A stretch of 64,000 nucleotides of DNA from a phage. A program made the position numbers and the translations under genes. Shown in pieces: positions 14,329 to 38,333 of the stretch. The notes below the pieces were generated by a model. That model ran no database searches, was not told where the DNA came from, and saw only the letters and a list, made by a program, of their open reading frames with translations. Position 1 is the first letter of the stretch. Every line of letters begins with the position of its first letter. Location: the NCBI GenBank assembly GCA_024683775.1, contig GCA_024683775.1_4106.1; one strand, 5' to 3'.

Positions 14329-14601
14329 ATGTCCAGCTACTCCGCTACTATGATCATTAAAGATATGAACGGTAATCCTACTTCTGCTGGTGGATCATTT
14401 GGAAATATTAACTTAGATGGGCGGTTATCCATGCAATCAGCCATCGATGCAGCGAAAGAAGTTTTTAAGAATGAATGTACTGTTAGTAAGCTGGATTATA
14501 TGGGTTTCGCTATCGAGAAAACTACTCGTTTTGTGAACTACAAAAATCCACTGATGATTGATACTAACCTGAAAGCTAACGAAGTGGGGTACTTATTATG
14601 A
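14329..14601 (+). CDS. hypothetical protein (90 aa)
   Basis: ORF; upstream cassette duplicates the one upstream of CDS 13832; contains a Chi octamer. Confidence 0.7.
   Translation: MSSYSATMIIKDMNGNPTSAGGSFGNINLDGRLSMQSAIDAAKEVFKNECTVSKLDYMGFAIEKTTRFVNYKNPLMIDTNLKANEVGYLL
14385..14392 (+). other. Chi octamer GCTGGTGG
   Basis: Exact match read in sequence. Confidence 0.8.
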
Positions 14602-14789
14602 CAGTAGAAGAAGTAAAAAAAGTACTGGCAGTACTACGATATCATAATCATTGCAAGGTGAAGAATGATCCTGATTATCTTGATTCATCCCTGGAGGAAG
14701 ACACCTTGAACGCTATAAGCCATATGCAGACATTAGCAAAGCGTATGACTGAAAAGAACATGCCGGACTATATCGGAAATAAAATTTAA
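14598..14789 (+). CDS. hypothetical protein (63 aa)
   Basis: ORF; ATGA overlap with previous stop. Confidence 0.6.
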   Translation: MTVEEVKKVLAVLRYHNHCKVKNDPDYLDSSLEEDTLNAISHMQTLAKRMTEKNMPDYIGNKI

Positions 14790-14876
14790 AAAGTACTTGC
14801 ATTGTAGTTAGATTAACGTATAATGTTTTATATCGAGAGGGGGAAATGGTTTCCCCTCAAGTCCAGGAGATACACC

Positions 14877-15140
14877 ATGAACACTATCGAAATCACTATC
14901 AATGCACACGTATACGACAACGTAGTACTGCAAACTACTATGACCGCCAATGATACCAGTACTTTGCGGAATACTGTTATTAGTGCCGTATGTGCCGCTA
15001 TCGGTGATGTCGCCCTGGAAAATGCAAAACACGTAAACGATGGTTTCACTATGTGCAAACGTGATAACGCAAAACATATCATCGTGGAAGGTTACGGCGG
15101 TGTAGAATTTAATGTTTATATGAAAAAAGTACTTGCATAA
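14877..15140 (+). CDS. hypothetical protein (87 aa)
   Basis: ORF; promoter, hairpin, SD CAGGAGA upstream; trimmed from track ORF 14823. Confidence 0.7.
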   Translation: MNTIEITINAHVYDNVVLQTTMTANDTSTLRNTVISAVCAAIGDVALENAKHVNDGFTMCKRDNAKHIIVEGYGGVEFNVYMKKVLA

Positions 15141-15207
15141 TAACTAAAACAAAGTATAATGTTTTGCATAGGGGGAGATATCCTCCCCCACTAAAAGGAG
15201 TAATAAA

Positions 15208-15432
15208 ATGGCTAACTTTGATGAACTGATGCGGGAAGTAGCTAACCTGGCAGAAGAGAAGAAATCATTCGATTCTATCTATAACACCGCTCACCGTGAT
15301 TCAGTACTGGCATGTAACCAGGATCAAAAAGATGAACTAATCGCCACCTATCATGAAGCATGGAAGTACTACCGACAATGGGAGAAAGAAGAAAGTGAGT
15401 CTACCATTGACGGCCTCAATAATCTAATCTAA
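15208..15432 (+). CDS. hypothetical protein (74 aa)
   Basis: ORF; promoter, hairpin GGGGGAGATATCCTCCCCC and SD upstream. Confidence 0.7.
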   Translation: MANFDELMREVANLAEEKKSFDSIYNTAHRDSVLACNQDQKDELIATYHEAWKYYRQWEKEESESTIDGLNNLI

Positions 15433-15508
15433 AAGTTTTATTTCAGTACTATTGACATAGCTTGATAGTACTGATGTAATAACTTTACTAACTACAAGGG
15501 GAAACATA

Positions 15509-15766
15509 ATGGATCAGTTCACACAATATCGGGTAAATCCTCAAGCTATGGCCTACGTAGAAGACCATAAAACGTTACCAGTACTGCAACCAGTTAAAGG
15601 CCATATCTATCGTGCAATGTCGTGGTGTACGGCCCAGGATGGCTATAAAACCGTAGCCGTGGGTATGTATTGCGGTGATGGTGAATGGTTTGATCCAAAT
15701 AATCCGGTATCCATTGACAGTACTGAAAAAATGAAATGGGCCGACTACATCGAAGATATTTCATAA
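15509..15766 (+). CDS. hypothetical protein (85 aa)
   Basis: ORF; type-III promoter and SD upstream. Confidence 0.65.
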   Translation: MDQFTQYRVNPQAMAYVEDHKTLPVLQPVKGHIYRAMSWCTAQDGYKTVAVGMYCGDGEWFDPNNPVSIDSTEKMKWADYIEDIS

Positions 15767-15856
15767 AAACTATTTGACAGTACTAACCAGTAATGTATAA
15801 TGTTTTACATAGAGCGGGGGAATAGTTCTCCCGCCAATAGTTTGGAGTAAAACATT

Positions 15857-16057
15857 ATGTCTATCGCTATCGCCCTGGTTGAAGTACTGAAAGAAGCTAA
15901 AGCCAACCAGATCGACGTAAAGATCCAGGAACTACAAAACGGCTTAATCGGCTGTACTTGTACCGCTGGTGGAGCGGCAGACTATCGAGAACACGAATCA
16001 CTCGAATCACTGGTTCGGTATCTTACCATGATCGTTGATGATTGGAGAATCATCTAA
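15857..16057 (+). CDS. hypothetical protein (66 aa)
   Basis: ORF; promoter, hairpin and SD upstream; contains a Chi octamer. Confidence 0.65.
   Translation: MSIAIALVEVLKEAKANQIDVKIQELQNGLIGCTCTAGGAADYREHESLESLVRYLTMIVDDWRII
15965..15972 (+). other. Chi octamer GCTGGTGG
   Basis: Exact match read in sequence. Confidence 0.8.
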
Positions 16058-16081
16058 CAAAAAAGAATAAAAAAAGGGATT

Positions 16082-16154
16082 GACTCCGGTCAGTCCTTTT
16101 GCTATTATATACGCATAGACAAAAACTAGCCCACAGGGTGCATAGGTGTATCCA
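16082..16154. repeat. composite intergenic repeat, copy 4
   Basis: Terminator hairpin overlapping TTGACT-17-TATTAT, then box CCCACAGGGTGCATAGGTGTATCC. Confidence 0.7.
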
Positions 16155-16187
16155 AAATATATAGTTAATAACGGTGAGTAACTATCT

Positions 16188-16195
16188 GCTGGTGG
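16188..16195 (+). other. Chi octamer GCTGGTGG
   Basis: Exact match just downstream of repeat copy 4. Confidence 0.8.
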
Positions 16196-16302
16196 AACTA
16201 AAACTATTAATAAAAAAGTATTGACAAAGTATATCAGTACTGCAATAATGTATCTCGTAGGGCGGCAATGGTGCGACGGCCCACAAAGTTAGGAGATTCA
16301 AA

Positions 16303-16638
16303 ATGACTACTTCAATCGCTATCGTTAAAGCTTTCATCCGTACTAATGTTTCCTCTGTATTCATCGACGGCCTCGACCGTAACGTAGAATACTCAATCAT
16401 TATCGCACAAACGGCAAACGGTTCTCGGTACATCCTGAATGATAGTGAAGCAAATCACTACTACTTCACTAAAGCCACTGGCTTTAAACGCATCGATGCT
16501 GATGTAGTATACGCTAAGATGAATAAGCTGGTAGACAAGATTAACGCGAAAGGTACTATCGATTTACAGTACTGGACCGAAACCGATCCAGAGTATGGAT
16601 CTCACCGCTACCTGAATCCAGGTATTAAAATGAAATAG
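16303..16638 (+). CDS. hypothetical protein (111 aa)
   Basis: ORF; promoter TTGACA...(C)AATAAT and SD TAGGAGA upstream. Confidence 0.7.
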   Translation: MTTSIAIVKAFIRTNVSSVFIDGLDRNVEYSIIIAQTANGSRYILNDSEANHYYFTKATGFKRIDADVVYAKMNKLVDKINAKGTIDLQYWTETDPEYGSHRYLNPGIKMK

Positions 16639-16723
16639 TACTTGCATAGTACTTAGATTCATGTATAATGTTTTACATAGAGAGGGGGAAATGGTTCTCC
16701 CTCCTAAATTAAGGAGTTTTATC

Positions 16724-17125
16724 ATGACCTTCTCAATCACTTCCTTCGCTGACGTTTTAGTACTGGCCCGGACTTTTGGTAAAGCTGGCCTTGAACACGC
16801 TGTAAGTAATGGTCATATGCACCCTGAATATTGCCGCATCATTGGAAGCTGCAAACGTTGGGCAGTGTCCCGTAATATTGAGATTGAAAACTTCAATGAC
16901 GGCAACAACGAATATACAGTTGATGCAGTATTCGAAGCCGTTGATCTCGGCGGTATCTATAACACTAACCTGAATGATGTGCGTATCGTTCGCACGGGGT
17001 TCGGTGCTTATGATGTATCTATCCGTGAAGCTATGGACAAGGGATACATTAGCAAGGACCAGTTAGCTTACATCATGCAGCAAACTAAGGAGCGTAATGA
17101 AGCACGTACTATCTTAGGGCTGTAA
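16724..17125 (+). CDS. hypothetical protein (133 aa)
   Basis: ORF; promoter, hairpin and SD TAAGGAG upstream; trimmed from track ORF 16661. Confidence 0.7.
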   Translation: MTFSITSFADVLVLARTFGKAGLEHAVSNGHMHPEYCRIIGSCKRWAVSRNIEIENFNDGNNEYTVDAVFEAVDLGGIYNTNLNDVRIVRTGFGAYDVSIREAMDKGYISKDQLAYIMQQTKERNEARTILGL

Positions 17126-17193
17126 GCAATACACATCACCAAACATCATAGGCCGCTCTCTAGCGGCCTTAACTATATCAGGAGTACATACAC

Positions 17194-17403
17194 ATGATCT
17201 ATACAGTATATAGCGTTCTAGGCACTATTGCAGGCGTACATGATAACGTCGATGGTGCTATGCGTACAGTACTGCAACAGGTTCCACTAAAGCCTAAGAC
17301 CATTAAGCAGATGACAGCACGACTAACCAGGGCGACGGCTGGCGTGGAAGTATGGCAGGACTATGGGGATACACAGATAATCGTAAGCGTAACGAAGGAT
17401 TAA
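17194..17403 (+). CDS. hypothetical protein (69 aa)
   Basis: ORF; hairpin AGGCCGCT-CTCT-AGCGGCCT then SD CAGGAG upstream. Confidence 0.65.
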   Translation: MIYTVYSVLGTIAGVHDNVDGAMRTVLQQVPLKPKTIKQMTARLTRATAGVEVWQDYGDTQIIVSVTKD

Positions 17404-17594
17404 TGCGTAAAAGGATTTAGTACTGAATCATAAAAAAGTCAAGGCATTTTTAAACTTCAGCGTTAAAAAAATGCATAGGTAATCCCTTGACTTTTATGAA
17501 TAAAAAGGGATTGGACTATGGCAAAATGCGTAGGGGGCTAAAGGGCGGGTAACCTTAGCGACTTCGATAAAGGGGTATTACTTATAAAATGTTA

Positions 17595-17622
17595 TTGACT
17601 TTTTATATGAATCGTATATTAT
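17595..17622 (+). promoter_or_regulatory. candidate promoter of the family A operon (TTGACT ... TATTAT)
   Basis: Only sigma70-like hexamer pair between the zone-1 end and the first family A gene. Confidence 0.5.
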
Positions 17623-17652
17623 TGGATTGATATTATTTTTAATGGAGTCCCT

Positions 17653-17850
17653 ATGCGTATTTTAACTCAAGAAGAGCACAACCACACACTCATATCCAAC
17701 ATGGCATATATCCTACATATGTCACATATCCGTGGTATTGCATATAAGCGTGAATTGGTTATGAAACTTTTCATAGGAACTAACTATCAAGAAAAGTATA
17801 TCGAACTATACTTACAAGAATTACGAAGGGACATAAAAGGTAGACTATGA
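17653..17850 (+). CDS. family A small protein (65 aa)
   Basis: ORF; SD AATGGAG upstream; C-terminal motif GTNYQEKYIELYL. Confidence 0.7.
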   Translation: MRILTQEEHNHTLISNMAYILHMSHIRGIAYKRELVMKLFIGTNYQEKYIELYLQELRRDIKGRL

Positions 17851-18047
17851 AAATGCGTATTTTAAATAAAGAAGATTATCAAGAACTGTTACGTAAAAAC
17901 ATGGTAAAGATTTATAACACAGACACAAACTTAGAACGAATTGAGTTATACCTTTTGATTACATTGGGAACAAGCTATCAGGGAAGATGGGTGATTCAAT
18001 ATATGGATGCATTGAAAAATGAAATATTATCCACGAGGAAACAATGA
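17847..18047 (+). CDS. family A small protein (66 aa)
   Basis: Family A motif LGTSYQ; ATGA overlap with neighbour. Confidence 0.7.
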   Translation: MKMRILNKEDYQELLRKNMVKIYNTDTNLERIELYLLITLGTSYQGRWVIQYMDALKNEILSTRKQ

Positions 18048-18253
18048 AAACTATAACACGAACCCAATCATACGGTCTTATCTTGAGATACATGGACTTA
18101 ATGTTGGATATCAGAAAAGACCTTCCTAAAACTGCAATTGAAGTTGCAAGAGCAGAGATCCGCATGTTGGCTGTACTGAACACAAACCATCAGGAAGAGT
18201 ATGTTGACGATTGGATTCGATTTTTAATAGAAGATATTAAGAGGAAACTATGA
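18044..18253 (+). CDS. family A small protein (69 aa)
   Basis: Family A motif LNTNHQEEY; ATGA overlap. Confidence 0.7.
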   Translation: MKTITRTQSYGLILRYMDLMLDIRKDLPKTAIEVARAEIRMLAVLNTNHQEEYVDDWIRFLIEDIKRKL

Positions 18254-18462
18254 TTTTTTTAACACCAGAAGAATATAAGATACGTTTTGTTTCTGTCCAG
18301 AATAAAATCTTAATTATATACAATTCAAATGCAGACCTTAACTTATCAAGGGTATTAGAAAAAGATTTACTTATGGGTGCATTTTTGGATACAGACTTTC
18401 AGGTGTATTATGTAGGGGAATACTTAATTGCACTCCAGAATTACATTAAGAGTAAACTATGA
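18250..18462 (+). CDS. family A small protein (70 aa)
   Basis: Family A motif LDTDFQ; ATGA overlap. Confidence 0.7.
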   Translation: MIFLTPEEYKIRFVSVQNKILIIYNSNADLNLSRVLEKDLLMGAFLDTDFQVYYVGEYLIALQNYIKSKL

Positions 18463-18671
18463 ATAGCATTAACTCAAATCTATATACCGAACGCGTCGCT
18501 GCAAGACAACTTGAAATTCTCATAGTATATGAAGAGACTGATGATTTGAACTTAGCATTAGTATTGGAAAATGATATACTATTGGGTGCATTCCTCGGCA
18601 CAGATTATCAGGAGCACTTCTTGAATGAGTATATAATTGCACTCCAGAAATACATTAAGAGCAAACTATGA
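18459..18671 (+). CDS. family A small protein (70 aa)
   Basis: Family A motif LGTDYQEHF; ATGA overlap; close paralog of 18250. Confidence 0.7.
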   Translation: MNSINSNLYTERVAARQLEILIVYEETDDLNLALVLENDILLGAFLGTDYQEHFLNEYIIALQKYIKSKL

Positions 18672-18886
18672 AACATTTAAGTAATTCCGAGAAGAATAAA
18701 ATTATCATTGCTGCAATAAACAAATATTTTACACTTCCTCACACAGAAGGTTTATGTGTAAGGGAACACAGGATAAACACCACCGATATACGCATGATGG
18801 CTGTACTGGGGACGAACTTTCAGGAAGAGTATGTTGTTGCACACATAGTTGCCCTCACTGATCTAATAAGGGACAAATGTAAATGA
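18668..18886 (+). CDS. family A small protein (72 aa)
   Basis: Family A motif LGTNFQEEY; ATGA overlap. Confidence 0.7.
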   Translation: MKHLSNSEKNKIIIAAINKYFTLPHTEGLCVREHRINTTDIRMMAVLGTNFQEEYVVAHIVALTDLIRDKCK

Positions 18887-19140
18887 AACACTTAACACTA
18901 GATGAATATGAAACTATAGTCCGTAAACTAACCCCTATAGCAAGGATAGTCTACGATGACCCCAGCCTTACATGGAACCAAATGCGAGCTAAAGTTAATG
19001 AGCTATGGTTGCTGTACTTTATGGGGACTCAATATCAAGATAAGTTTTGCACAGAATATGTCGAACAATTAATGAATGTTATACAGGATAAACTAGATGA
19101 TTATTGGCTCACAAAACATGAAGACTTTATCAGGAGTTGA
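18883..19140 (+). CDS. family A small protein (85 aa)
   Basis: Family A motif MGTQYQDKF; ATGA overlap; C-terminal extension overlaps next gene. Confidence 0.65.
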   Translation: MKHLTLDEYETIVRKLTPIARIVYDDPSLTWNQMRAKVNELWLLYFMGTQYQDKFCTEYVEQLMNVIQDKLDDYWLTKHEDFIRS

Positions 19141-19369
19141 GTATCAAACTGCCCTATTCTCTTTAATCCATACCCTTAGAAAAAACAATGCCTTACATGG
19201 TGCACCTGAAGTGGATGTTATCAACGGTGAACTTTATCTTATGAAATTCATTGGAACAAACTATCAAGATCTGTTCATTCAACGATACTTATCAGCATTA
19301 AGAAACCAAATCCAATATAAAACCATCAAGGCCAAAAAAGAATGGAATAAACAATGCGACACAGACTAA
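19118..19369 (+). CDS. family A small protein (83 aa)
   Basis: Family A motif IGTNYQDLF; start trimmed to MKTLSGVEY. Confidence 0.65.
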   Translation: MKTLSGVEYQTALFSLIHTLRKNNALHGAPEVDVINGELYLMKFIGTNYQDLFIQRYLSALRNQIQYKTIKAKKEWNKQCDTD

Positions 19370-19605
19370 ATCACAAAATGTATTGTAAACTATTACAGAC
19401 ACTGGCACAGAAACACTATGACACGGTATCTGGAATATTACCCTATGATATCATGCGTTTACTTCACTGTGAGGCCGAGATGCTTGTACTGATGACAGGC
19501 ACTGATAAAAAAGCAATTGTCAAATCAATAGATATGTTCATCGAAGCACAATGTCAACACATTAGAACCGAGATATGGAGGCGAGAGAATGATAACCCTA
19601 AATGA
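19354..19605 (+). CDS. family A-like small protein, divergent (83 aa)
   Basis: Same size and position in the array; motif degraded to MTGTDKK. Confidence 0.6.
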   Translation: MRHRLNHKMYCKLLQTLAQKHYDTVSGILPYDIMRLLHCEAEMLVLMTGTDKKAIVKSIDMFIEAQCQHIRTEIWRRENDNPK

Positions 19606-19804
19606 GTTTCAGTATCATTGGAGATTACAAGCTATAAGAAGGAAAGTTGTTAGTATTTCTTTAGACAAGTCTATTGCACAAGAGGACAAATGTGTTATAA
19701 TAGCTGAAATGAAGTTGGGTGCTTTCGTAGGGACAAACTATCAAAACATCTACACTGACGTATTGTTAAGTGCCTTACGTAACAAGGTGATATCAAAAGA
19801 ATGA
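19589..19804 (+). CDS. family A small protein (71 aa)
   Basis: Family A motif VGTNYQNIY; overlap with neighbours. Confidence 0.7.
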   Translation: MITLNEFQYHWRLQAIRRKVVSISLDKSIAQEDKCVIIAEMKLGAFVGTNYQNIYTDVLLSALRNKVISKE

Positions 19805-20019
19805 GAAAATTACAAGGCTTTGAATACATCAGACTCCTGAAAACATGCACCAGCAGAAGGAAAATCTTATCAAGCAACAAGAGCATCCCTGCCAACCTAA
19901 AACATGCAATGATAGCTGAACTCTATGTAGAAGCACTCATAGGGACAAACTATCAACAAATGTATATAGACATGTGGGTTGATGCATTAGTCAAGGAGAT
20001 CAAAAGTAAATGCAAATGA
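19801..20019 (+). CDS. family A small protein (72 aa)
   Basis: Family A motif IGTNYQQMY; ATGA overlap. Confidence 0.7.
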   Translation: MRKLQGFEYIRLLKTCTSRRKILSSNKSIPANLKHAMIAELYVEALIGTNYQQMYIDMWVDALVKEIKSKCK

Positions 20020-20228
20020 TTAATTTAAGTAAAGATGAATATTATGATCGTCTTGCAAAAACTTATCCAGCACGTAACGCCGTTTATAATAGTAACATTA
20101 TTGAACGCTCAAAGAAGTTGATTGTAGTAAATGAGATTAAGATGCTTTCAGTCTTAGGAACAAACTATCAAGAGAATGCTGTACTGTTGTTAATTGATGC
20201 CCTCAAGAGAGAGATACAAAGTAAATGA
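20010..20228 (+). CDS. family A small protein (72 aa)
   Basis: Family A motif LGTNYQENA; overlap. Confidence 0.7.
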   Translation: MQMINLSKDEYYDRLAKTYPARNAVYNSNIIERSKKLIVVNEIKMLSVLGTNYQENAVLLLIDALKREIQSK

Positions 20229-20461
20229 TTCATTTATCTTACCATGATTATCAAAAACGTTTAAATGCATCAAGGGATATAAGGATTCAAATCTTCAATA
20301 ACAAAAAATTGAAACCTGATAACAGAAGAATCAAAATGATAGAAGCAGAGTTATGCAACTTCCTGGGGACGAACTATCAGGCAGGTAAGGTAAAAAACTA
20401 TCTTAGAGAACTAATGAATTGTATCGAAAATAAATGCGATGCTTTGGAGAATAAAAAATGA
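20225..20461 (+). CDS. family A small protein (78 aa)
   Basis: Family A motif LGTNYQAGK; ATGA overlap. Confidence 0.7.
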   Translation: MIHLSYHDYQKRLNASRDIRIQIFNNKKLKPDNRRIKMIEAELCNFLGTNYQAGKVKNYLRELMNCIENKCDALENKK

Positions 20462-20715
20462 TCAATTTAAGTAAAGATGAATATACCGAGCGTATGACAA
20501 AAATTACACACAAACGTAATACAATCTATCACAACCAAAAAATTCAACACAGTAAGAAAATGATTATGATGCGTGAGTTAAAGATGGGTGTATTCTTGGG
20601 AACAAACTATCAAGAGCCAGAAGTAAATCGATTAATTGATGAGTTACTATTGGAAATCAAAGGTAAGCTGTACTTTTATCAAATGACCCGTCCACTAAGG
20701 TGTACTGATCGATGA
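20458..20715 (+). CDS. family A small protein (85 aa)
   Basis: Family A motif LGTNYQEPE; ATGA overlap. Confidence 0.7.
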   Translation: MINLSKDEYTERMTKITHKRNTIYHNQKIQHSKKMIMMRELKMGVFLGTNYQEPEVNRLIDELLLEIKGKLYFYQMTRPLRCTDR

Positions 20716-20954
20716 ATATTGTGAATAACATCAGATTAGCAGAAAGATTTGATAGAATTGGGGAAGCTATGAGAAGATACGATAAAGAATATGGTCATTT
20801 AAGCTTTACGATAGAAAAGAGATATGAACTTGAAGCAGAGTTTAAAATGCAGTTCCTTTTAGGTACACAGTATCAAAACCAATATGTAGAAAAATGGATT
20901 TCACTTTTAATCCAGACAATTTACGTAAGGAACATTAAATGCAAAATGAAATGA
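20712..20954 (+). CDS. family A small protein (80 aa)
   Basis: Family A motif LGTQYQNQY; ATGA overlap. Confidence 0.7.
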   Translation: MNIVNNIRLAERFDRIGEAMRRYDKEYGHLSFTIEKRYELEAEFKMQFLLGTQYQNQYVEKWISLLIQTIYVRNIKCKMK

Positions 20955-21175
20955 TATACTTAACACATGATGAGTTAACAGAAAGACTAGATAAATCCAA
21001 AAAACTTACAAAATATCTTCCACACAACCCAAACCAAACCCCAGCAGAAAGGAGTGCAGAAGTTTTATTCCAAACATTACCATACCTTCTTGGAACTGAT
21101 AGGCAAGAGTATCATATTGAACGTATAATTAAATATCTCAAAATTACTATTATGGAAAAAGTAAATGCAAAGTGA
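20939..21175 (+). CDS. family A small protein (78 aa)
   Basis: Family A motif LGTDRQEYH; subgroup with N-terminus MQNEMIYLT. Confidence 0.7.
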   Translation: MQNEMIYLTHDELTERLDKSKKLTKYLPHNPNQTPAERSAEVLFQTLPYLLGTDRQEYHIERIIKYLKITIMEKVNAK

Positions 21176-21395
21176 AATGATATACTTAACGAATGAAGAA
21201 TTTCAAGAGAAGATGTTAAAAGCCAATAACATTACTCTTAAGTTCGTTCCAAATCAATCAATATATGAAATGTCTGCGAATGTATTGTTTCAGAAGCTAC
21301 CATACGTTCTTGGAACTGATAAACAAGAATTTATGGTTCAAAATATGATTGAACATCTTGTAATGAGTATTAAGGAAAAAGTAAATGCAAAATGA
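21165..21395 (+). CDS. family A small protein (76 aa)
   Basis: Family A motif LGTDKQEFM; close paralog of 20939. Confidence 0.7.
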   Translation: MQSEMIYLTNEEFQEKMLKANNITLKFVPNQSIYEMSANVLFQKLPYVLGTDKQEFMVQNMIEHLVMSIKEKVNAK

Positions 21396-21642
21396 AATGA
21401 AATACTTAACAGACGATGAGTTAAAAGAACGATTAATTAAATCCAGAAAACTTACAAATCAACTTCCAAACGACACAAACAAGTCACCTGCCGAAAGGAG
21501 TGCAGAAGTTTTATACATTCAACTCATGTACTTTCTTGGAACTGACAGACAAGAGTATTACATTGAAAGTATGCTTCGATATCTTAAATTCTCTATAAAG
21601 GAAAAGATACATGCTCAAGAATTTAAAAATCCTAACAGTTAA
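21385..21642 (+). CDS. family A small protein (85 aa)
   Basis: Family A motif LGTDRQEYY; close paralog of 20939. Confidence 0.7.
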   Translation: MQNEMKYLTDDELKERLIKSRKLTNQLPNDTNKSPAERSAEVLYIQLMYFLGTDRQEYYIESMLRYLKFSIKEKIHAQEFKNPNS

Positions 21643-21868
21643 TGAATATCATAAGATTGTAATGAAAACTAATAGTGCAATTTCTAAAAAATCAAACCCA
21701 AAGTACATACTGGAACACACATTTGAAGAACGTCAATTAGCTTTAGTTGAAGCAAAACTTCTTGCACTCCTAGGAACAAACTATCAGGAAGAATACATCA
21801 GAAAACTAATATACCTTTTAACTAAACACATCAGGAAAAGAAAAAAGCATGAAGCACTTGACAGATGA
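21611..21868 (+). CDS. family A small protein (85 aa)
   Basis: Family A motif LGTNYQEEY. Confidence 0.7.
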   Translation: MLKNLKILTVNEYHKIVMKTNSAISKKSNPKYILEHTFEERQLALVEAKLLALLGTNYQEEYIRKLIYLLTKHIRKRKKHEALDR

Positions 21869-22079
21869 TGAACATGGGCTTATAGTAATGGATGTAATCA
21901 ACATCGAATACAAAAAGTTGATACGCTACCGTTGTTATGAAGATAAGCAACTCGTTCTAGCAGAACAGAAGTTGTTTCGACTCTTAAACACAAACTTCCA
22001 AGCACAATACGAAGAATCGTATATGTACCTTTTGGCGAGGAAAGCAAAAAGAGATTATGAAAATTTTAAGCCACAGTGA
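21849..22079 (+). CDS. family A small protein (76 aa)
   Basis: Family A motif LNTNFQAQY. Confidence 0.7.
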   Translation: MKHLTDDEHGLIVMDVINIEYKKLIRYRCYEDKQLVLAEQKLFRLLNTNFQAQYEESYMYLLARKAKRDYENFKPQ

Positions 22080-22272
22080 ACAAACAGAATTGTTAATCTT
22101 TAATACAAGTAAATTCTTAAACATAACATTGTCTGATATAGATGAGGATGAAAAAGAGTTACTTAGAGCAGATTTAAGAGTTCTTTTATATATTGGAACT
22201 AACTTCCAAGAGCAATTCGTTGAGGACTACATCGATGAACTTAAAGAATCTGTACTGAGAACATGCAAATGA
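22057..22272 (+). CDS. family A small protein (71 aa)
   Basis: Family A motif IGTNFQEQF. Confidence 0.7.
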   Translation: MKILSHSEQTELLIFNTSKFLNITLSDIDEDEKELLRADLRVLLYIGTNFQEQFVEDYIDELKESVLRTCK

Positions 22273-22505
22273 AAATCCTTTCACCAAGTGAATACCACGA
22301 ACTATTAAGTAGTTTAATTCTAAAATTGTATATAGCAAAGACCACAGATTTACCTGATGAAGAAAAAAATATTCTAATGAGTGAAATCTATGTTAATTCT
22401 ACCCTAGGGACTAACTATCAAGAATGTAATATTAATGATTACATCAAAGAACTAAAAAGGTTTATCCAATGCAAATGCGAATCATTACTGAAACAGAATA
22501 CCTAA
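22263..22505 (+). CDS. family A small protein (80 aa)
   Basis: Family A motif LGTNYQECN. Confidence 0.7.
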   Translation: MQMKILSPSEYHELLSSLILKLYIAKTTDLPDEEKNILMSEIYVNSTLGTNYQECNINDYIKELKRFIQCKCESLLKQNT

Positions 22506-22711
22506 CAATCTTAAATGGACTGTTTTTGAAGTTATTTGCCATTAACACATCAAAACTACCAGATACTGATAAAATTATTAAGTTAAATGAAATCTATGTT
22601 CAAGCTACACTGGGAACTAACTATCAAGAAGCCAATGTGTATAATTACATTAATACACTCAAAAGGGTAATAAAATTAAAATGCACAAACAGCCAATACA
22701 CAAACCCCTAG
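22469..22711 (+). CDS. family A small protein (80 aa)
   Basis: Family A motif LGTNYQEAN; close paralog of 22263. Confidence 0.7.
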   Translation: MQMRIITETEYLTILNGLFLKLFAINTSKLPDTDKIIKLNEIYVQATLGTNYQEANVYNYINTLKRVIKLKCTNSQYTNP

Positions 22712-22911
22712 GAACAGCAGAATACATTGAACTAATGGCTGCAAACTTCTCATCCTTTAAGAAACTGATGCAAGAATCAAATAATGATTTAGAATATCAC
22801 ATCAAAAGTTCAGATTTAAGATTGCTACTCACTCTAGGAACAGATTCCCAAGAGCGATTTGTCAATGAGCATATTAGAGCACTTTTAAATGGCATCAGGA
22901 ATAAACTATGA
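22681..22911 (+). CDS. family A small protein (76 aa)
   Basis: Family A motif LGTDSQERF; start overlaps previous gene by 31 nt. Confidence 0.65.
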   Translation: MHKQPIHKPLGTAEYIELMAANFSSFKKLMQESNNDLEYHIKSSDLRLLLTLGTDSQERFVNEHIRALLNGIRNKL

Positions 22912-23123
22912 AGGAAATATCAAATCAAGAGTACTTGGCACTATTCAGGAAGAATAATCACAAATATATGGCACTTGATTCAAGAACTGATATAAGTGAA
23001 CTTCAGAAAAATCTTTTGCGTTCAGAGATGATAGTACTGACACTCTTAGGAACACAGCATCAAGAGAGAACTGTTAATTCACACATAGAGATTCTTATGC
23101 AGATAGTACAGGAAAAGATATGA
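22908..23123 (+). CDS. family A small protein (71 aa)
   Basis: Family A motif LGTQHQERT; ATGA overlap. Confidence 0.7.
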   Translation: MKEISNQEYLALFRKNNHKYMALDSRTDISELQKNLLRSEMIVLTLLGTQHQERTVNSHIEILMQIVQEKI

Positions 23124-23341
23124 GAATCATAACACAACAAGATATTCTTAAGTTCACAAGGGTTCATGCATCTGAATTTGATGCTATATTATCAAAAAGT
23201 TACAACAACCCTTATACAGAAGATGTACATTACAGTGAATTATGGATGTATATACTTTTAGGTACAAATAAGCAAGAGCAAGCAGTACAGAAGTATTTGA
23301 CAGCTTTACGTGATGCTACAGCTAATGGAGTACGTGTTTAA
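23120..23341 (+). CDS. family A small protein (73 aa)
   Basis: Family A motif LGTNKQEQA; ATGA overlap. Confidence 0.7.
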   Translation: MRIITQQDILKFTRVHASEFDAILSKSYNNPYTEDVHYSELWMYILLGTNKQEQAVQKYLTALRDATANGVRV

Positions 23342-23342
23342 T

Positions 23343-23594
23343 ATGAAAGTACTGACAGAACTAGAAATGTATCATAGATTTAATAAGTACTATCATTTAC
23401 TTAAGCCTATACAGAGGATTAAATGTCCATTTGAAGAGAAACAGGTTTTAATCTATGAGCACAAGTTCTTTGTATCATTAGGTACAGATCAACAAGAGTA
23501 CTATTTGACGTTGTACTTGATTACATTAATAGATTTCATTCACTATAAAACCACACAATCTAAACAAGCTAATAAAGAGAAATATGAAAACTAA
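23343..23594 (+). CDS. family A small protein (83 aa)
   Basis: Family A motif LGTDQQEYY; start trimmed to MKVLTELEMY right after previous stop. Confidence 0.65.
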   Translation: MKVLTELEMYHRFNKYYHLLKPIQRIKCPFEEKQVLIYEHKFFVSLGTDQQEYYLTLYLITLIDFIHYKTTQSKQANKEKYEN

Positions 23595-23922
23595 TATAAA
23601 ACTCAAGGTATATAAATCATTTGCAAGTACATACATCAAATGCCATACATGTAACTCTGTAATGGACTACAAAGGTAAGCCATTTGCACTTACTTATGAT
23701 AATACAAGAGGTTTTTATATATCTTTTGCTGATTACAAATATAACATGTACGAACACATTGACATTGAAGATTTAAGTACTTTATCTGAAGAGGAATACT
23801 TTCAAGAATCATTAGTATGGGATTTGGAGTTTCCTATGCCATTAGTACATAAAATGATAGTACTAATAAAAGAAACTAAACCTGTACCTAATGGTTATGA
23901 AGAACACATTATTGAGTATTAA
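23584..23922 (+). CDS. family B protein (112 aa)
   Basis: Motif EEEYFQESLVWD; near-identical tandem duplicate of CDS 23937. Confidence 0.7.
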   Translation: MKTNIKLKVYKSFASTYIKCHTCNSVMDYKGKPFALTYDNTRGFYISFADYKYNMYEHIDIEDLSTLSEEEYFQESLVWDLEFPMPLVHKMIVLIKETKPVPNGYEEHIIEY

Positions 23923-23936
23923 TATATAAGGTAACT

Positions 23937-24278
23937 ATGAAAACTAATATACAACTCAATGTATACAGTTCAGAAGAACATACATATATCAAATGCAGTC
24001 TATGTAAAGATGTAATGGACTACAAAGGTAAGCCATTCACAATTACTTATGATTCTGATGTTAATGATTTATATATATCATTTCTTAATTACGAAAAGAA
24101 AATATACAAGCACGTTGATATTAAAGATTTAAGTACTTTATCAGCAGAGGAATACTTTCAAGAATCATTAGTATGGGATTTAGAATTTCCTATGCCATTA
24201 GTACATAAAATGGTAGTCCTAATGAAAGAAGCTAAACCGGAGTTTAATGGTTATGAAGAACACATCGTTGAGTACTGA
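23937..24278 (+). CDS. family B protein (113 aa)
   Basis: Motif AEEYFQESLVWD; SD AAGGTAA upstream. Confidence 0.7.
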   Translation: MKTNIQLNVYSSEEHTYIKCSLCKDVMDYKGKPFTITYDSDVNDLYISFLNYEKKIYKHVDIKDLSTLSAEEYFQESLVWDLEFPMPLVHKMVVLMKEAKPEFNGYEEHIVEY

Positions 24279-24281
24279 ACA

Positions 24282-24497
24282 ATGAAAATATTATCATACG
24301 AAGATTACCGCAAGCTTCGCGGTATTTTGCGACCAGAAATTCAAAGAATTAATTCTCTTCCTATATCTAATGCAGAATGTTCAGTACTGAAAGATGAGTT
24401 AATATTAAAACACACAGTAGGAACTAACTATCAAGCTGATAGTGTTCGATATCTAATTTGGGGATTAATATGCATAGTAAAGGAAAAACAAGCTTGA
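24282..24497 (+). CDS. family A small protein (71 aa)
   Basis: Family A motif VGTNYQADS. Confidence 0.7.
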   Translation: MKILSYEDYRKLRGILRPEIQRINSLPISNAECSVLKDELILKHTVGTNYQADSVRYLIWGLICIVKEKQA

Positions 24498-24522
24498 CAG
24501 TACTTTTCATTACTGATATAGT
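24494..24522 (+). promoter_or_regulatory. candidate sigma70-like promoter (TTGACA-17-TATAGT)
   Basis: Hexamers read directly upstream of CDS 24554. Confidence 0.5.
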
Positions 24523-24553
24523 ACCTGTACGTTAATCATTAGGGTAGAAAATT

Positions 24554-24799
24554 ATGTTGAATTTTTTAAATTTCCTTATCGTCTTGTGTATTGTTCTTGG
24601 GATTGCACCATTTGTATTGTATTTCATGGATTCCGATGAAATGCAAAAGATGAATTGCACAAGGACAGGACAGAGTAGAGAAGAGACGATTCTTATGCCT
24701 GTTACCGTTATTGTTAATAATATGCCCATTACAAACATGGTCCCTACCCTAACGACAACGTACCAGTACTCTTGTACAGACGGAGAGAGGTGGAGATAA
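24554..24799 (+). CDS. small membrane protein (81 aa)
   Basis: ORF; SD AGGGTAGAAA upstream; hydrophobic N-terminal helix FLNFLIVLCIVLGIAPFVLYF. Confidence 0.6.
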   Translation: MLNFLNFLIVLCIVLGIAPFVLYFMDSDEMQKMNCTRTGQSREETILMPVTVIVNNMPITNMVPTLTTTYQYSCTDGERWR

Positions 24800-25122
24800 T
24801 GCGTAAGTTCAATTGTATTGTACGTAAGAATTCATGTTACATTGTAGTAGCTGATTTTAATACAGGTTCTGGGTTGAAGATATTTGAGTACAGAAAATGC
24901 AATAATTCTTTTCATTGGAAATTGGGTGCAAGAAAAGCAAAAACAATTTCAGTACCGAATTTATGTTCTATCTCTGAAGAAGAAGAGTTTCAGTACTTGT
25001 TAGTACATGATGATTCTTTAGGATTTACATTCGAAGATATGAAGGAAGTACAAAAGCAGATGATTGCACATTGTCATCTTCCACCGAATTTTGTTCAACG
25101 CGTATGTGAATTCTACATATAA
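24799..25122 (+). CDS. family B protein (107 aa)
   Basis: Motif EEEEFQYLLVHD; SD GGAGAGAGG upstream; trimmed from track ORF 24772. Confidence 0.65.
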   Translation: MRKFNCIVRKNSCYIVVADFNTGSGLKIFEYRKCNNSFHWKLGARKAKTISVPNLCSISEEEEFQYLLVHDDSLGFTFEDMKEVQKQMIAHCHLPPNFVQRVCEFYI

Positions 25123-25131
25123 GAGAAGAAT

Positions 25132-25443
25132 ATGAAATTTAATATAGCAAAAACATCGAGTATATGTATTTTTGGTTATGCAGAAGAGTTAGGTGATATT
25201 GACATTCTTTTGTACAAAAAGGATGGTGTTATGCATTTCAAGTACCAGGATGAAGAGGCAGACAATTATCTTTTACCTAATTTAGTACAAATGCAGGAAG
25301 AGGAATTATTCCAGTACAGCTTAATATACGACATTGATATTTGCACGATGCCAGTATTAATTAGTATTCAAAAAGTGATGCTCGATATGTATGATAATTT
25401 AATACAAGGTACAGCAGGGATAACCAAACATGTCAATATATAA
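25132..25443 (+). CDS. family B protein (103 aa)
   Basis: Motif EEELFQYSLIYD. Confidence 0.7.
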   Translation: MKFNIAKTSSICIFGYAEELGDIDILLYKKDGVMHFKYQDEEADNYLLPNLVQMQEEELFQYSLIYDIDICTMPVLISIQKVMLDMYDNLIQGTAGITKHVNI

Positions 25444-25636
25444 GGATTTACCTAATGCATATATGTTGAAGTATAAAGAGTTTATTAAAGATGTATATGT
25501 AGATCCGTTCAATATAAAATTATCAGAGTTCGATGTATCATTTTATCTAGGGACAATAGTACAGGAACAATACGTTGATAAGCTCATAAGGTGCATGAAA
25601 AATGAGATTCGATGGAGATTAGATGCAAATGTATAA
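25430..25636 (+). CDS. family A-like small protein (68 aa)
   Basis: Motif LGTIVQEQYVDKLI; located inside array B. Confidence 0.65.
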   Translation: MSIYKDLPNAYMLKYKEFIKDVYVDPFNIKLSEFDVSFYLGTIVQEQYVDKLIRCMKNEIRWRLDANV

Positions 25637-25880
25637 AAAGATAGATGCTTATTTGTATGCTTCAAAGTACAGGGATTTTTGTTTACGAGGGGGAGAGGAA
25701 GATTTCGCTCTGAGATTATCTGAATTTAATATGTTATTTTATCTTGGTACAAAAGAACAAGAAGATACAGTACAGAAATTTCTCAATCATCTTGTACAAA
25801 AAATTAATATGCAAATTTTGATGCTTAAGTTACAGAATGAGATAAATGAATATGAATCCAGAAATAGTTCAGGATCTTAA
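25623..25880 (+). CDS. family A-like small protein (85 aa)
   Basis: Motif LGTKEQEDTVQKFL; located inside array B. Confidence 0.65.
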   Translation: MQMYKKIDAYLYASKYRDFCLRGGEEDFALRLSEFNMLFYLGTKEQEDTVQKFLNHLVQKINMQILMLKLQNEINEYESRNSSGS

Positions 25881-26256
25881 AAAAGTAATATTTCTTTTGA
25901 ATACAAGAAGCTCTTTATATAAGGAGTTCAAGGATATTAAAACATCGTGTAATATAGATTTTTTTGAAACCATACATGCGGAGTTTCGTGATTTAATTGC
26001 AGATGCATTGTTTGAATTTTCCGAGAAATATCAAGGTACAGTCTTCGGTGTTAAGAATGTTCTTCGTCCAAGTACAGGTACAAGGAAGATTGAGTTATCA
26101 CATTTTACAATTGGTAACAACGATTTATTCAGTTATAACCCCAGTACATCTTTATATTTTATTCCTGTTTCAGACAAAAATCATCCTATTCATTACGGAT
26201 GGATTATATCTTATACAATAAATGGAACGGAGTATCCTATCAAATGGCACGATTAG
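25846..26256 (+). CDS. hypothetical protein (136 aa)
   Basis: ORF; no family motif recognised. Confidence 0.55.
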   Translation: MNMNPEIVQDLKKVIFLLNTRSSLYKEFKDIKTSCNIDFFETIHAEFRDLIADALFEFSEKYQGTVFGVKNVLRPSTGTRKIELSHFTIGNNDLFSYNPSTSLYFIPVSDKNHPIHYGWIISYTINGTEYPIKWHD

Positions 26257-26396
26257 GGTGTGAAGATTATAATATGAATATATTATTAAGAAATATTAAT
26301 GCAGATTATTGTGTATGGGTTAAGAATAGAGATATGATGTATTATGATTTTTATTTAGATTGTGCCATTAAGCGTTATTTGAGGGAAGAATTTTAA
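26244..26396 (+). CDS. hypothetical protein (50 aa)
   Basis: ORF overlapping previous stop; start uncertain (track ORF 26199). Confidence 0.4.
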   Translation: MARLGCEDYNMNILLRNINADYCVWVKNRDMMYYDFYLDCAIKRYLREEF

Positions 26397-26578
26397 TGAA
26401 ATCATATGAAGCAAGAACATTTGATGATTTAAATAATTCATTGATTACAAGCATTAAGATGTATTACAATATACATTTAAAGGGTGGAATTAATGATTTT
26501 AGTTATTATCTTAGTGCAATATTACAAGAGCATTTAAATTATCAAGATCGTTTATTACATCCAAATCCACCAAATTAA
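26396..26578 (+). CDS. hypothetical protein (60 aa)
   Basis: ORF; start abuts previous stop. Confidence 0.5.
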   Translation: MKSYEARTFDDLNNSLITSIKMYYNIHLKGGINDFSYYLSAILQEHLNYQDRLLHPNPPN

Positions 26579-26589
26579 GGAATACCAAT

Positions 26590-27150
26590 ATGAATGATAT
26601 TGAGTTATTGGTACATAAGATTTGCACAATATCGTTAGTGCTGAACAATGCGAATACAGTACAGAGTTCCCTTTTAAGAATTAATAAAGTTGGGAGTAGT
26701 TTATATTTGGAAGTAAAAGCTGGTTTTGCAGGACAGTACAATGATAAAATCAAAGAAGAAGTTAAGGGAAATGAAGATGCTTTCATTGAGGTTTGTGCAA
26801 CAGTTGGTTCAAATCCAATTTCAGTATCACCTTTAATGCGAAATGAAAATTCAGAATTTGATTCCAGTTTTGAAGGTTATTTGTGGTACAATTATGGTGA
26901 TGATTATTTTATATATCAAAATTCCAAAACGGATTATAGTGAAGAAGGTATAAAATTCATTGATCCTTACAATGAAGCAGAAGTATTTCAGACATCCCTA
27001 ATATACAATACAAATCAAATGAAGTATCTTATGTTGTTTAGTACAATGCATTTGAATCCATTGAAAGATAATTTAAAATTTTTCATTCGTTTAGAATTAG
27101 TTGATATTGCTTATGATCTTTTAATGCAAGGATATAGTTATGAAGTATAA
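26590..27150 (+). CDS. family B protein (186 aa)
   Basis: Motif EAEVFQTSLIYN. Confidence 0.7.
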   Translation: MNDIELLVHKICTISLVLNNANTVQSSLLRINKVGSSLYLEVKAGFAGQYNDKIKEEVKGNEDAFIEVCATVGSNPISVSPLMRNENSEFDSSFEGYLWYNYGDDYFIYQNSKTDYSEEGIKFIDPYNEAEVFQTSLIYNTNQMKYLMLFSTMHLNPLKDNLKFFIRLELVDIAYDLLMQGYSYEV

Positions 27151-37435: not shown

Positions 37436-37968
37436 GAAAAATTAACATTAATGATTACAATGCATTACAAGATTTATCAAAAAAGATTCGCACTATCGTA
37501 CCAGTACTGAAAAAATGCAGTACTGGATTAATTGATCCTAGTACTGTTGTTAATGAGAAGTACAATTTTCATTATGTATTACAGGGTACTGGGGCATTCC
37601 AGAAGTGTGAGGTGCGTGAGAAACACGTAATTGATACATCATTGTTTTCTATTGGTGCACCTATGTCGAATAATACTATTTTCCTGGATGACGCAGGAAA
37701 TATTCAACAATTAACATTTAAGAAAAGGAAAAAGAACAATAACATTGGTGTGTACGCGATGAAGTGGGGTCAACCTGATTTGAAGCGTGAAATTCACATC
37801 CCTAAGTACAATTACAATTCATTTGAAGAACAGTGCTTTCAACTATCTTGTACTGACCCTGACTATGCTATCATTCAGTTCTATATGGAATTGCAGATTG
37901 CATTTAACAGTAATTTGTATATTAACTTATTGGCGATGAACATCGATGAAGTATTCAAAAACATTTAA
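37432..37968 (+). CDS. family B protein (178 aa)
   Basis: Motif EEQCFQLSCTDP; ATGA-type overlap. Confidence 0.65.
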   Translation: MRKININDYNALQDLSKKIRTIVPVLKKCSTGLIDPSTVVNEKYNFHYVLQGTGAFQKCEVREKHVIDTSLFSIGAPMSNNTIFLDDAGNIQQLTFKKRKKNNNIGVYAMKWGQPDLKREIHIPKYNYNSFEEQCFQLSCTDPDYAIIQFYMELQIAFNSNLYINLLAMNIDEVFKNI

Positions 37969-38164
37969 TCGAATTGAATACATGAGAACTGTGAGTGCAG
38001 TGTGGGACATATGGTTCACTACTAAACCAAAAATGGATTACCATGACTTTAAGCTATTGTTCTTCGTTGGCTCTAACAAACAGGATGTTGCAATGAAGGG
38101 TTATATTCAGCACTTACAGGAACTAATCCAGAAGAGAATATATGAAAATAATAGACCAAGATGA
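37946..38164 (+). CDS. family A-like small protein (72 aa)
   Basis: Motif VGSNKQDVAMKGYI; inside array B. Confidence 0.65.
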   Translation: MKYSKTFNRIEYMRTVSAVWDIWFTTKPKMDYHDFKLLFFVGSNKQDVAMKGYIQHLQELIQKRIYENNRPR

Positions 38165-38333
38165 TATTGCTAAACTATTCAATATATATTCTTCTAAAAT
38201 GATGCAAACCGACTCATATAGTACTGAATTCAAAGAATTAAAAGTACTGATGTATTTGGGCACACAGTATCAGGAACAAGTTGTTAAAGAATATATTGAT
38301 TCTTTACAGAAGGATATCCGTTATGTACAATGA
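38142..38333 (+). CDS. family A small protein (63 aa)
   Basis: Motif LGTQYQEQVVKEYI; inside array B. Confidence 0.7.
   Translation: MKIIDQDDIAKLFNIYSSKMMQTDSYSTEFKELKVLMYLGTQYQEQVVKEYIDSLQKDIRYVQ

Follow-up and report, generated by a model that had tools for sequence, protein, structure and literature searches.

A gapless array of 27 paralogous small genes at the edge of the terminal repeat of an Asteriusvirus jumbo coliphage

We analysed a stretch of 64,000 nucleotides of phage DNA (NCBI GenBank assembly GCA_024683775.1, contig GCA_024683775.1_4106.1), called the window below, whose source is an Asteriusvirus jumbo coliphage of the PBECO4/121Q group. Between positions 17653 and 23594 the window carries 27 consecutive small paralogous genes (family A), packed end to end directly outside the left direct terminal repeat (DTR). 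Family A consists of genuine protein genes under selection. Its members are stand-alone soluble proteins of ~70 residues with a predicted four-helix fold, and the family is confined to Asteriusvirus, in 26-27 contiguous copies, and to Alcyoneusvirus, where the copies are dispersed. We tentatively read the array as an early-expressed panel of binding proteins built on one scaffold, each member for a different host or defence target.

The list of open reading frames (ORFs) contains 27 consecutive + strand family A ORFs across this interval. A seed hidden Markov model (HMM) was built from them and scanned against the 370 window ORFs of at least 40 aa. All 27 scored at E 1e-17 to 1e-27, and five ORFs further to the right, at 24282, 25430, 25623, 37946 and 38142, scored at 8e-7 to 2e-13. 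The original prediction, made from the letters alone, had named the same 27 ORFs and the same five outliers. Beyond these 32 members the HMM matched none of the 370 ORFs, and a repeat of the scan again gave 32. The family corresponds to PHROG phrog_4148, an entry of 'unknown function' that carries no structure or array note, and array genes match it at E 1e-17 to 1e-25. The phrog_4148 and Pfam-A scans covered eight members (five array genes and three outliers). Seven of the eight matched phrog_4148 at E 3.6e-10 to 1.8e-25 over profile positions 1-70 of 74, and outlier 25623 gave a partial match (E 4.5e-4). Asteriusvirus phages WPEC5, Ecwhy_1 and fEgEco12 share 96-97% identity with the interval 17000-24500, and 37 jumbo-phage records from E. 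coli and Salmonella match it. Orthologous arrays are present there, with every gene under these matches annotated as 'hypothetical protein'. As the family is catalogued in PHROG and has orthologous arrays in 37 records, it is not a product of chance. What the analysis adds to the phrog_4148 entry is the arrangement of 27 genes in one contiguous block, its place beside the DTR and a model of the fold. Within the window, AT skew is unusually high (0.16-0.22) in the array only.

The array had been described as sharing an N-terminal M-K-x-L-[ST]-x-x-E-Y pattern and a C-terminal L-G-T-N-Y-Q-E-x-[YF] motif, followed by a segment ending in K-x-K-L. Both ends are indeed conserved, but the near-invariant part is a shorter core, G48-T49-x-x-Q52 (G 91%, T 97%, Q 97%), and the full G-T-N-Y-Q-E occurs in only 6 of the 27 array members (G-T-N-Y-Q in 10/27). 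Further conserved positions are M1, L63 (94%), I67 (81%), L4 (74%), L47 (72%), E40 (72%), E8 (68%) and Y9 (59%). The K-x-K-L ending did not hold: it is strictly true of two members, a [KR]-L end is present in 5/27, and the others differ or have tails of 5-20 residues.

Selection was measured on orthologs, by multiple alignment and pairwise NG86 dN/dS (omega) between the window and phages vB_Ec-M-J, ph0011, SD-15_S21 and SP27 (five genomes). This check, which the original prediction had proposed, gave purifying selection, with a pooled omega of 0.36 (range 0.34-0.41). In most conserved columns pN was 0.00-0.03 against a pS of 0.09-0.34, with E8, E53 and V56 higher. Pooled omega was 0.17 in conserved columns and 0.48 in variable columns. 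By region, it was 0.34 for the N-terminal motif, 0.47 for the variable segment, 0.29 for helix 3, 0.16 for G-T-N-Y-Q-E and 0.34 for helix 4, with bootstrap upper bounds of 0.60 or less except in the 4-column tail. With omega low everywhere and nowhere near 1, each paralog preserves its own 'variable' residues. Such retention fits a long-standing functional differentiation and would argue against an ongoing arms race.

The regular period of ~200-260 nt and the short DNA similarity around the GGNACNAAYTAYCAR motif might suggest that the ORFs are no genes but arise from tandem repetition of non-coding DNA, the case named beforehand as fatal to a reading as genes. We give it practically no chance. 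Tandem Repeats Finder (TRF) reported no tandem repeat at score 30 or above within 17653-23594; its sole hit was a gene pair of another family, family B, at 23583-24274. DNA-level likeness among paralogs (60-76% identity) extends over only ~50 nt around the motif, and the motif codons vary synonymously between paralogs. Pairwise identity of the paralogous proteins averages 24% with a maximum of 64%. Together with the pN and pS values of the conserved columns, their pooled omega and the confident structure model described next, these computations already refute the DNA-repeat reading.

The structure of gene 12 was predicted with AlphaFold2 from an alignment of the 32 window paralogs alone. As the prediction had called for, a model could be obtained, and it was confident (pLDDT 97.8, pTM 0.83), with helices at residues 6-15, 17-24, 31-45 and 52-69 and a beta-bridge from residue 2 to residue 49, the T49 of the motif. 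In the model the N-terminal M-x-x-L packs on the L-G-T turn between helices 3 and 4, so that the two motif 'ends' would co-vary. By general knowledge of helix capping, and not as read off the coordinates, S/T5-x-x-E8 is at the expected capping-box position of helix 1 and G48 ends helix 3. Conserved hydrophobic residues appear to recur at i, i+3/4 and i+7 spacing, and the conserved residues as a whole look like determinants of the predicted fold. The least conserved segment, which varies in length too, runs from the remainder of helix 1 through helix 2 and the loop into the start of helix 3. A diversified surface on a fixed scaffold had been proposed from the two conserved ends. The scaffold part agrees with the model, where these ends form one structural element, but the diversity is ancient rather than ongoing, as the omega of the variable segment indicates.

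Searches for relatives of the protein gave little. Foldseek against PDB gave no significant fold match (best E 1.9), and in BFVD it returned family A members only, from 121Q, UB, PBECO4 and slurp01. No Pfam-A score exceeded the gathering threshold in the eight members scanned (best 15.3 bits against a cut-off of 22.4, DUF2087), and PADLOC and the PDB sequence profile search gave nothing above threshold for family A. An identity with Im7/Im9-type immunity proteins was rejected, as Pfam, the PDB profile and Foldseek gave no sequence or fold similarity. No TM-like (transmembrane) segment was found in family A, and the hydropathy index GRAVY is mostly negative.

The members differ widely in net charge (-7.4 to +8.9) and isoelectric point (pI 4.4 to 9.9). 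Since 20 of the 32 are basic (pI >8) with Lys-rich C-termini, and the model has a helix-turn(G)-helix segment, the paralogs might be small nucleic-acid-binding regulators, for instance modulators of transcription or translation, or proteins that coat DNA, each with a site of its own; the ~35-copy zinc ribbon of Bacillus phage G has been proposed as a set of transcription factors or DNA-binding proteins (PMC7824862). We consider such a role quite unlikely for family A. Eight of the 32 members are clearly acidic, down to pI 4.4, no helix-turn-helix (HTH) or other DNA-binding Pfam hit was found in the eight members scanned, and the Lys-rich C-terminus is partly due to the embedded Shine-Dalgarno (SD) sequence and ATGA context of the next gene. 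A helix-turn-helix identity in particular was rejected, there being no HTH profile or fold match and no uniformly basic surface.

All 26 junctions of the array overlap or sit at most 1 nt apart when family-consistent starts are used. In eight genes the first listed ATG is not the consistent one, and the starts at 19118, 20016, 20951, 21177, 21397, 22269, 22475 and 23343 were taken instead. Stop/start overlap, as predicted, runs nearly throughout: 15/26 junctions are ATGA overlaps, eight are overlaps of 16-32 nt, in which the upstream gene has a C-terminal tail, and three are gaps of 1 nt. Outside the array ATGA overlaps make up ~15% of junctions in the remaining unique region and ~4% in the repeat. 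Codon 2 starts with A in 29/32 family A genes (K, R, I or N). The ATGA overlap requires an A at this place, and the 'conserved N-terminal motif' thus owes part of its conservation to a constraint on the nucleotides. Junctions whose upstream stop has shifted keep this A too, a hint that they were originally ATGA overlaps.

Packing of stops and starts without intergenic space is the anatomy expected of one transcription unit with translational coupling. The unit had been taken to end at 23594. This is not the case: two family-B genes and a 28th family-A gene follow in the same gapless run, which reaches 24497, and the first real gap after the array, of 56 nt, carries a strong TTGACA-17-TATAGT site. 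Mean anti-SD duplex energy is -4.2 kcal/mol at internal array starts, compared with -1.5 kcal/mol at random array positions (p = 8e-8) and -5.8 kcal/mol at stand-alone genes of the repeat (p = 6e-4). An SD-like sequence of its own, at -4 kcal/mol or better, precedes 17 of the 26 internal starts; the other nine are weaker, three of them near 0. On these figures translation probably combines embedded SDs with termination-reinitiation, the latter by inference, and coupling is probably needed only for the roughly nine SD-less genes. The proposal of one coupled unit thus keeps its packing, at all 26 junctions, but not a need for coupling at every start. Independently of this, members of the mini-array of Klebsiella phage Muenster carry the annotators' remark 'no rbs, close to upstream gene 3' end'.

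The annotated DTR of vB_Ec-M-J ends at record position 21525 (position 2056 of the aligned stretch), which is window ~17555, and the 20,993-bp DTR of fEgEco12 gives the same inner boundary (window ~17554/17555). The array is therefore the first thing in the unique region, starting 98 nt from the inner edge of the left ~21-kb repeat and just outside it. A block at 17470-17575, which includes a G-rich run GCGTAGGGGGCTAAAGGGCGGGTAACC, shows 100% identity across five phages, against 86-97% in the genes on either side, and could serve as the signal for where the repeat ends. A hairpin near the DTR boundary was not significant (z = -1.76).

The sole gap upstream of the array (17404-17652) holds a sigma-70-like TTGACT-16-TATTAT (17595-17622) and a GGAG SD. 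Transcription from a single promoter at this place had been predicted. The site is there, conserved in three relatives with 1-3 substitutions, but Salmonella phage SD-15_S21 has lost it, along with the SD of gene 1, by a 72-nt deletion (aligned 17576-17647) and retains the array. Internal sigma-70-like sites lie at 18892-18920 and 21858-21886, and ~30 promoters of the repeat lie upstream. Given the deletion and the two internal sites, 'single promoter' is not upheld, and 'co-transcribed early block' would be the better-supported statement. Promoter-like sites of the region are not above shuffles (47 vs 52.9), which applies to those at 17595, 18892 and 21858 alike. All four Salmonella-phage matches begin at the same query position. 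Two further candidates were rejected: a -10 element after the L-T codons of every gene (a good site in only 2/28 genes), and a promoter word shared by 17486 and 17595 (CTTGACTTTT...GAA), which is not above chance.

The left repeat itself (window 1-17400) holds ~30 small genes, each with a near-consensus sigma-70 promoter, all pointing to the array. These promoters are flanked by AGTACT words, for example AAAAAGTACTTGCAA ... AGTACTGTATAAT, and many of the genes carry a 5'-UTR (untranslated region) hairpin GGGGAGAAnnnTTCTCCCC ahead of the SD. By these features the repeat looks like an immediate-early host-takeover module.

In an exhaustive profile search of 1.84 billion cluster representatives only 97 family A clusters were found. 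A word-indexed protein search gave 108 family A proteins, and the longest contigs were all phage-sized (~345-380 kb). With the consensus as query, tblastn found 13-21 places per Asteriusvirus genome and 1-3 in Klebsiella Alcyoneusvirus, the HMM being the more sensitive. Complete E. coli genomes and plasmids gave no family A match, and a degenerate DNA pattern found only 121Q plus one chance hit in IMG/VR. No description of family A was found in the literature on Asteriusvirus, PBECO4, 121Q, phAPEC6 or RaK2, or in a comparative review of jumbo phages. The homologous arrays that had been suggested as a check contain 27 contiguous copies in the window, ph0011 and SD-15_S21, and 26 in vB_Ec-M-J and SP27. 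The copies are largely one-to-one across these five genomes, most counterparts being >75% identical, and no pseudogenised copy was seen in the five arrays examined.

Klebsiella phage Muenster (Alcyoneusvirus) has 13 members at 20246-37487 (HMM, first 50 kb), which lie singly, in pairs or in threes between unrelated genes. They begin with the gene next to its 20,030-bp repeat, and no member lies inside the repeat; the position directly after the DTR is conserved in the two genera. In Alcyoneusvirus (Muenster, phiKp_21) three members share a ~55-aa C-terminal extension, E-E-A-V-Q-Y-C..N-N-x-K-L. In coliphages UB and EC.P1, P0183 (269 aa) is a family-A domain fused to a 180-aa RaK2-like domain of unknown function. 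Two other family members, P0191 and P0197, have ~55-aa extensions. Finding a function by way of such fusion partners was tried and dropped, as P0183, P0191 and P0197 gave no Pfam hit and the extra domains are missing from the window.

The distribution bears on the idea that the paralogs are subunits of one hetero-oligomeric assembly, or adaptors to a common partner, in which a conserved polar cluster (E8, E40, T49, Q52, E53) would bind a shared machine or neighbouring subunits and coupling would set equal stoichiometry. ATGA coupling over many cistrons is a classical route to fixed subunit ratios, several of the conserved residues are polar, copy number is steady at 26-27 across genomes and purifying selection keeps every copy. 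Even so, we judge the idea, in both its parts, unlikely. The copies of Muenster are few and scattered, so fixed stoichiometry is not conserved, and the charges of the paralogs span -7 to +9. ATGA overlaps are also common elsewhere in the unique region. Moreover, the proteins do not appear among those identified in the virion: the array genes of phAPEC6 are gp467c-gp488c, and its virion proteome of 62 proteins has no gp46x-gp49x (Table 1, PMC7247149).

Alcyoneusvirus copies are interspersed among the window paralogs, with a mean identity of 24.6% between genera and 23.9% within the window; hence most of the diversity is older than the separation of the two genera. Recent-looking pairs are few, namely adjacent genes 4/5, 16-18 and 22/23 (46-54% identity) and the non-adjacent 12/14. 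Compared with any single relative, successive genes can differ sharply in identity, over a range of 47% to 100%. Divergent alleles have dS of 0.6-1.2 and omega of 0.2-0.45, and this high dS with low omega points to cassette exchange between lineages, not fast evolution in place. By analogy, the gene-wise mosaicism resembles that of accessory host-interaction regions.

These ages also bear on whether unequal recombination in a permissive early region has left behind copies that, though translated, are for the most part redundant or dispensable and do little individually. The adjacent recent duplicates would agree with this, as would an omega of 0.36, which is relaxed compared with typical core genes, and a window in which 64 of the 167 + strand genes fall into paralog groups by BLASTP; RaK2, too, is reported to have ~10% paralogous proteins (PMC3622015). 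However, most paralogs are as old as the two-genus split and are still intact, the variable columns too are under purifying selection, and the five arrays hold no pseudogenised copies, which makes dispensability very unlikely in our view.

A panel of early binding proteins is the reading that we prefer, tentatively as said. Early transcription by host RNA polymerase would start at the sigma-70-like promoter at 17595, and the many strong promoters of the repeat would add read-through. Each cistron would be translated from an SD inside the C-terminal codons of the previous gene or, where there is no SD, by termination-reinitiation at ATGA. With transcription shared and translation of this kind, all members would appear together in roughly fixed proportions. 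The predicted fold would be built by M1-x-x-L4, S/T5-x-x-E8, L47-G48-T49-x-x-Q52, L63 and I67 through the beta-bridge, helix caps and a hydrophobic stripe, while the exposed residues of helices 1-3 and the loop would vary between paralogs, as does net charge, from about -7 to +9. In the least certain step, each paralog would be a distinct small binding protein for a separate host or defence target during takeover. Together they would form a permanent set of inhibitors or adaptors and not an accordion under rapid evolution. In Muenster, annotators list a kinase, toxin/antitoxin-like proteins and an ADP-ribosyltransferase in the neighbourhood, and the window itself encodes a Dam-like methylase. 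The place right behind the DTR in two genera, the individually promoted small genes of the repeat, the long retention of each copy and the gene-wise mosaicism also speak for this reading.

Several points weigh against this panel. An active arms race would predict omega >1, and it was reached at no site or region in the five-genome comparison. The stable copy number of 26-27 argues against rapid adaptive turnover. The promoter at 17595 is dispensable in Salmonella-infecting relatives, and no Asteriusvirus transcriptome was found in the literature. That the array products are absent from the phAPEC6 virion proteome agrees with a non-structural role, though small proteins are easily missed by mass spectrometry. 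Finally, the assignment of residues to surface or core follows secondary structure and periodicity of the model, not coordinates. A bolder version, doubtful when taken as a whole, would make the array a library of an unrecognised four-helix scaffold: 32 pre-made, co-expressed 'mini-binders', each of which would neutralise a separate host protein of immunity or housekeeping. They would be the first thing that the unique region yields once the terminal repeat has entered the cell.

Like SPO1, whose genes 37-60 lie in the terminal redundancy, and T5 with its pre-early genes, the window has a long terminal repeat in or next to which such phages place host-takeover modules, with many small early genes of unknown function transcribed by host RNA polymerase from strong sigma-70-type promoters. 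The DTR of the window has the same look and the array directly follows it. The SPO1 and T5 modules, however, consist of unrelated genes with their own promoters, whereas here one family occurs 27 times, without gaps, just outside the repeat. The MGF110/360/505 families of African swine fever virus (ASFV) and the host-range families of poxviruses are tandem paralog blocks near the termini, variable between isolates, which have been linked to host range and immune evasion. They are a conceptual model for the proposed function, with no homology, and their copy number changes quickly, in contrast to an array stable at 26-27 with ancient paralogs. Im7/Im9, the immunity proteins against colicin and pyocin DNases, are small inhibitors of four helices, one of which is a conserved hot spot while another varies and sets specificity, and bacteria carry arrays of orphan immunity genes of this kind. 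Family A is of similar size, all-helical, and has a conserved Tyr-containing motif and a variable helix, the likeness stopping short of sequence or fold. The zinc ribbon of Bacillus phage G is a lineage-specific expansion whose function has been guessed (PMC7824862). Like family A, it is one small protein in tens of copies in one jumbo-phage genome, but it belongs to another phage lineage, and family A has four helices and no Cys pattern. In kind, family A is a viral multigene family, here with an orphan fold and a striking anatomy, and it does not establish a new principle.

The coordinates of all family A genes and of the neighbouring elements are given in Table 1.

Table 1. Coordinates of family A genes and neighbouring features in the window
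Feature	Position	Strand	Remarks
Family A gene 1	17653..17850	+	65 aa; HMM 1.8e-19
Family A gene 2	17847..18047	+	ATGA overlap; alternative start 17853; HMM, junction analysis
Family A gene 3	18044..18253	+	HMM, junction analysis
Family A gene 4	18250..18462	+	HMM, junction analysis
Family A gene 5	18459..18671	+	51% identity to gene 4; HMM, junction analysis
Family A gene 6	18668..18886	+	HMM, junction analysis
Family A gene 7	18883..19140	+	85 aa, C-terminal tail; phrog_4148 6e-21
Family A gene 8	19118..19369	+	ORF opens 19097; consistent start 19118
Family A gene 9	19354..19605	+	most divergent; G-T-D-K-K with 6-residue insertion
Family A gene 10	19589..19804	+	HMM, junction analysis
Family A gene 11	19801..20019	+	HMM, junction analysis
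Family A gene 12	20016..20228	+	ORF opens 20010; sequence used for AlphaFold model
Family A gene 13	20225..20461	+	HMM, junction analysis
Family A gene 14	20458..20715	+	HMM, phrog_4148 scan, junction analysis
Family A gene 15	20712..20954	+	HMM, junction analysis
Family A gene 16	20951..21175	+	ORF opens 20939; HMM, junction analysis
Family A gene 17	21177..21395	+	ORF opens 21165; HMM, junction analysis
Family A gene 18	21397..21642	+	ORF opens 21385; HMM, phrog_4148 scan, junction analysis
Family A gene 19	21611..21868	+	HMM, junction analysis
Family A gene 20	21849..22079	+	HMM, junction analysis
Family A gene 21	22057..22272	+	HMM, junction analysis
Family A gene 22	22269..22505	+	ORF opens 22263; HMM, phrog_4148 scan, junction analysis
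Family A gene 23	22475..22711	+	ORF opens 22469; HMM, junction analysis
Family A gene 24	22681..22911	+	HMM, junction analysis
Family A gene 25	22908..23123	+	HMM, junction analysis
Family A gene 26	23120..23341	+	HMM, junction analysis
Family A gene 27	23343..23594	+	ORF opens GTG 23310; consistent start 23343
Two family-B genes (phrog_13866), within gapless unit	23584..24278 (23584-23922, 23937-24278)	+	
Family A outlier 28, final gene of gapless unit	24282..24497	+	HMM 9.7e-10; phrog_4148 3.6e-10
Family A outlier 29	25430..25636	+	HMM 9.6e-9
Family A outlier 30	25623..25880	+	HMM 5.5e-8
Family A outlier 31	37946..38164	+	HMM 7.6e-7
Family A outlier 32	38142..38333	+	HMM 2.3e-13; phrog_4148 1.4e-17
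GGAG Shine-Dalgarno of gene 1	17644..17647	+	duplex energy -5.9 kcal/mol
Sigma-70-like promoter TTGACT-16-TATTAT, first promoter-like site of unique region	17595..17622	+	10/12 matches
Block with inner boundary of left DTR	17470..17575	+	identical in 5 phages
Internal sigma-70-like site TTAACA-17-TATAGT, from gene 7 N-terminus codons	18892..18920	+	
Internal sigma-70-like site TTGACA-17-TATAGT, from gene 20 N-terminus codons	21858..21886	+	
Promoter-like site TTGACA-17-TATAGT with TG, first real gap past array	24494..24522	+	conserved in relatives

Other parts of the window also carry paralogs. Family B (phrog_13866) has 11 genes of ~105-140 aa between 23584 and 42077 with the motif E-E-L-F-Q-E-S-L-V-W-D, and weak hits out to 51838. 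Its HMM weakly touches many proteins of 150-200 aa at 27-51 kb, so that much of this region may be one superfamily. Kinship between families A and B by way of a shared [YF]-Q-E was rejected (hhalign probability 0.09%). More tandem paralog sets (~150 aa, ~95 aa) lie at 34420-37435, 41240-42956 and 58908-61047. A Dam-like N6-adenine DNA methyltransferase is encoded at 56636-57160 (Pfam PF05869, E 2.5e-32). In the repeat, 12660-13301 has a weak protein-kinase-like match (PF00069, E 0.005, below threshold), and a gene in the repeat of Muenster is annotated as a putative protein kinase (HHpred). The + strand holds 163 of the 171 window ORFs, and GC is ~39% in the repeat and ~31% beyond 20 kb. Rfam gave no RNA family hit anywhere in the window.

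About 83% of genes in these ~350-kb coliphages are without known function (PMC7247149), and such phages are under development for therapy against avian pathogenic (APEC), uropathogenic (UPEC) and Shiga toxin-producing (STEC) E. coli strains. Family A spans ~7 kb of the window with its 32 genes, ~5% of the 670 genes predicted for the close relative fEgEco12. If its members are host-takeover or counter-defence factors, a considerable piece of jumbo-phage 'dark matter' would be explained, with consequences for host range. Otherwise, 32 paralogs at ~24% identity on one confidently predicted orphan fold are a natural experiment on how much surface change a scaffold tolerates. The array is also a handy system for asking how far termination-reinitiation carries ribosomes over 27-30 overlapping cistrons. 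Should the doubtful mini-binder version be true, its proteins would form a class new to phage counter-defence or host takeover, with a natural scaffold on which binders could be engineered.

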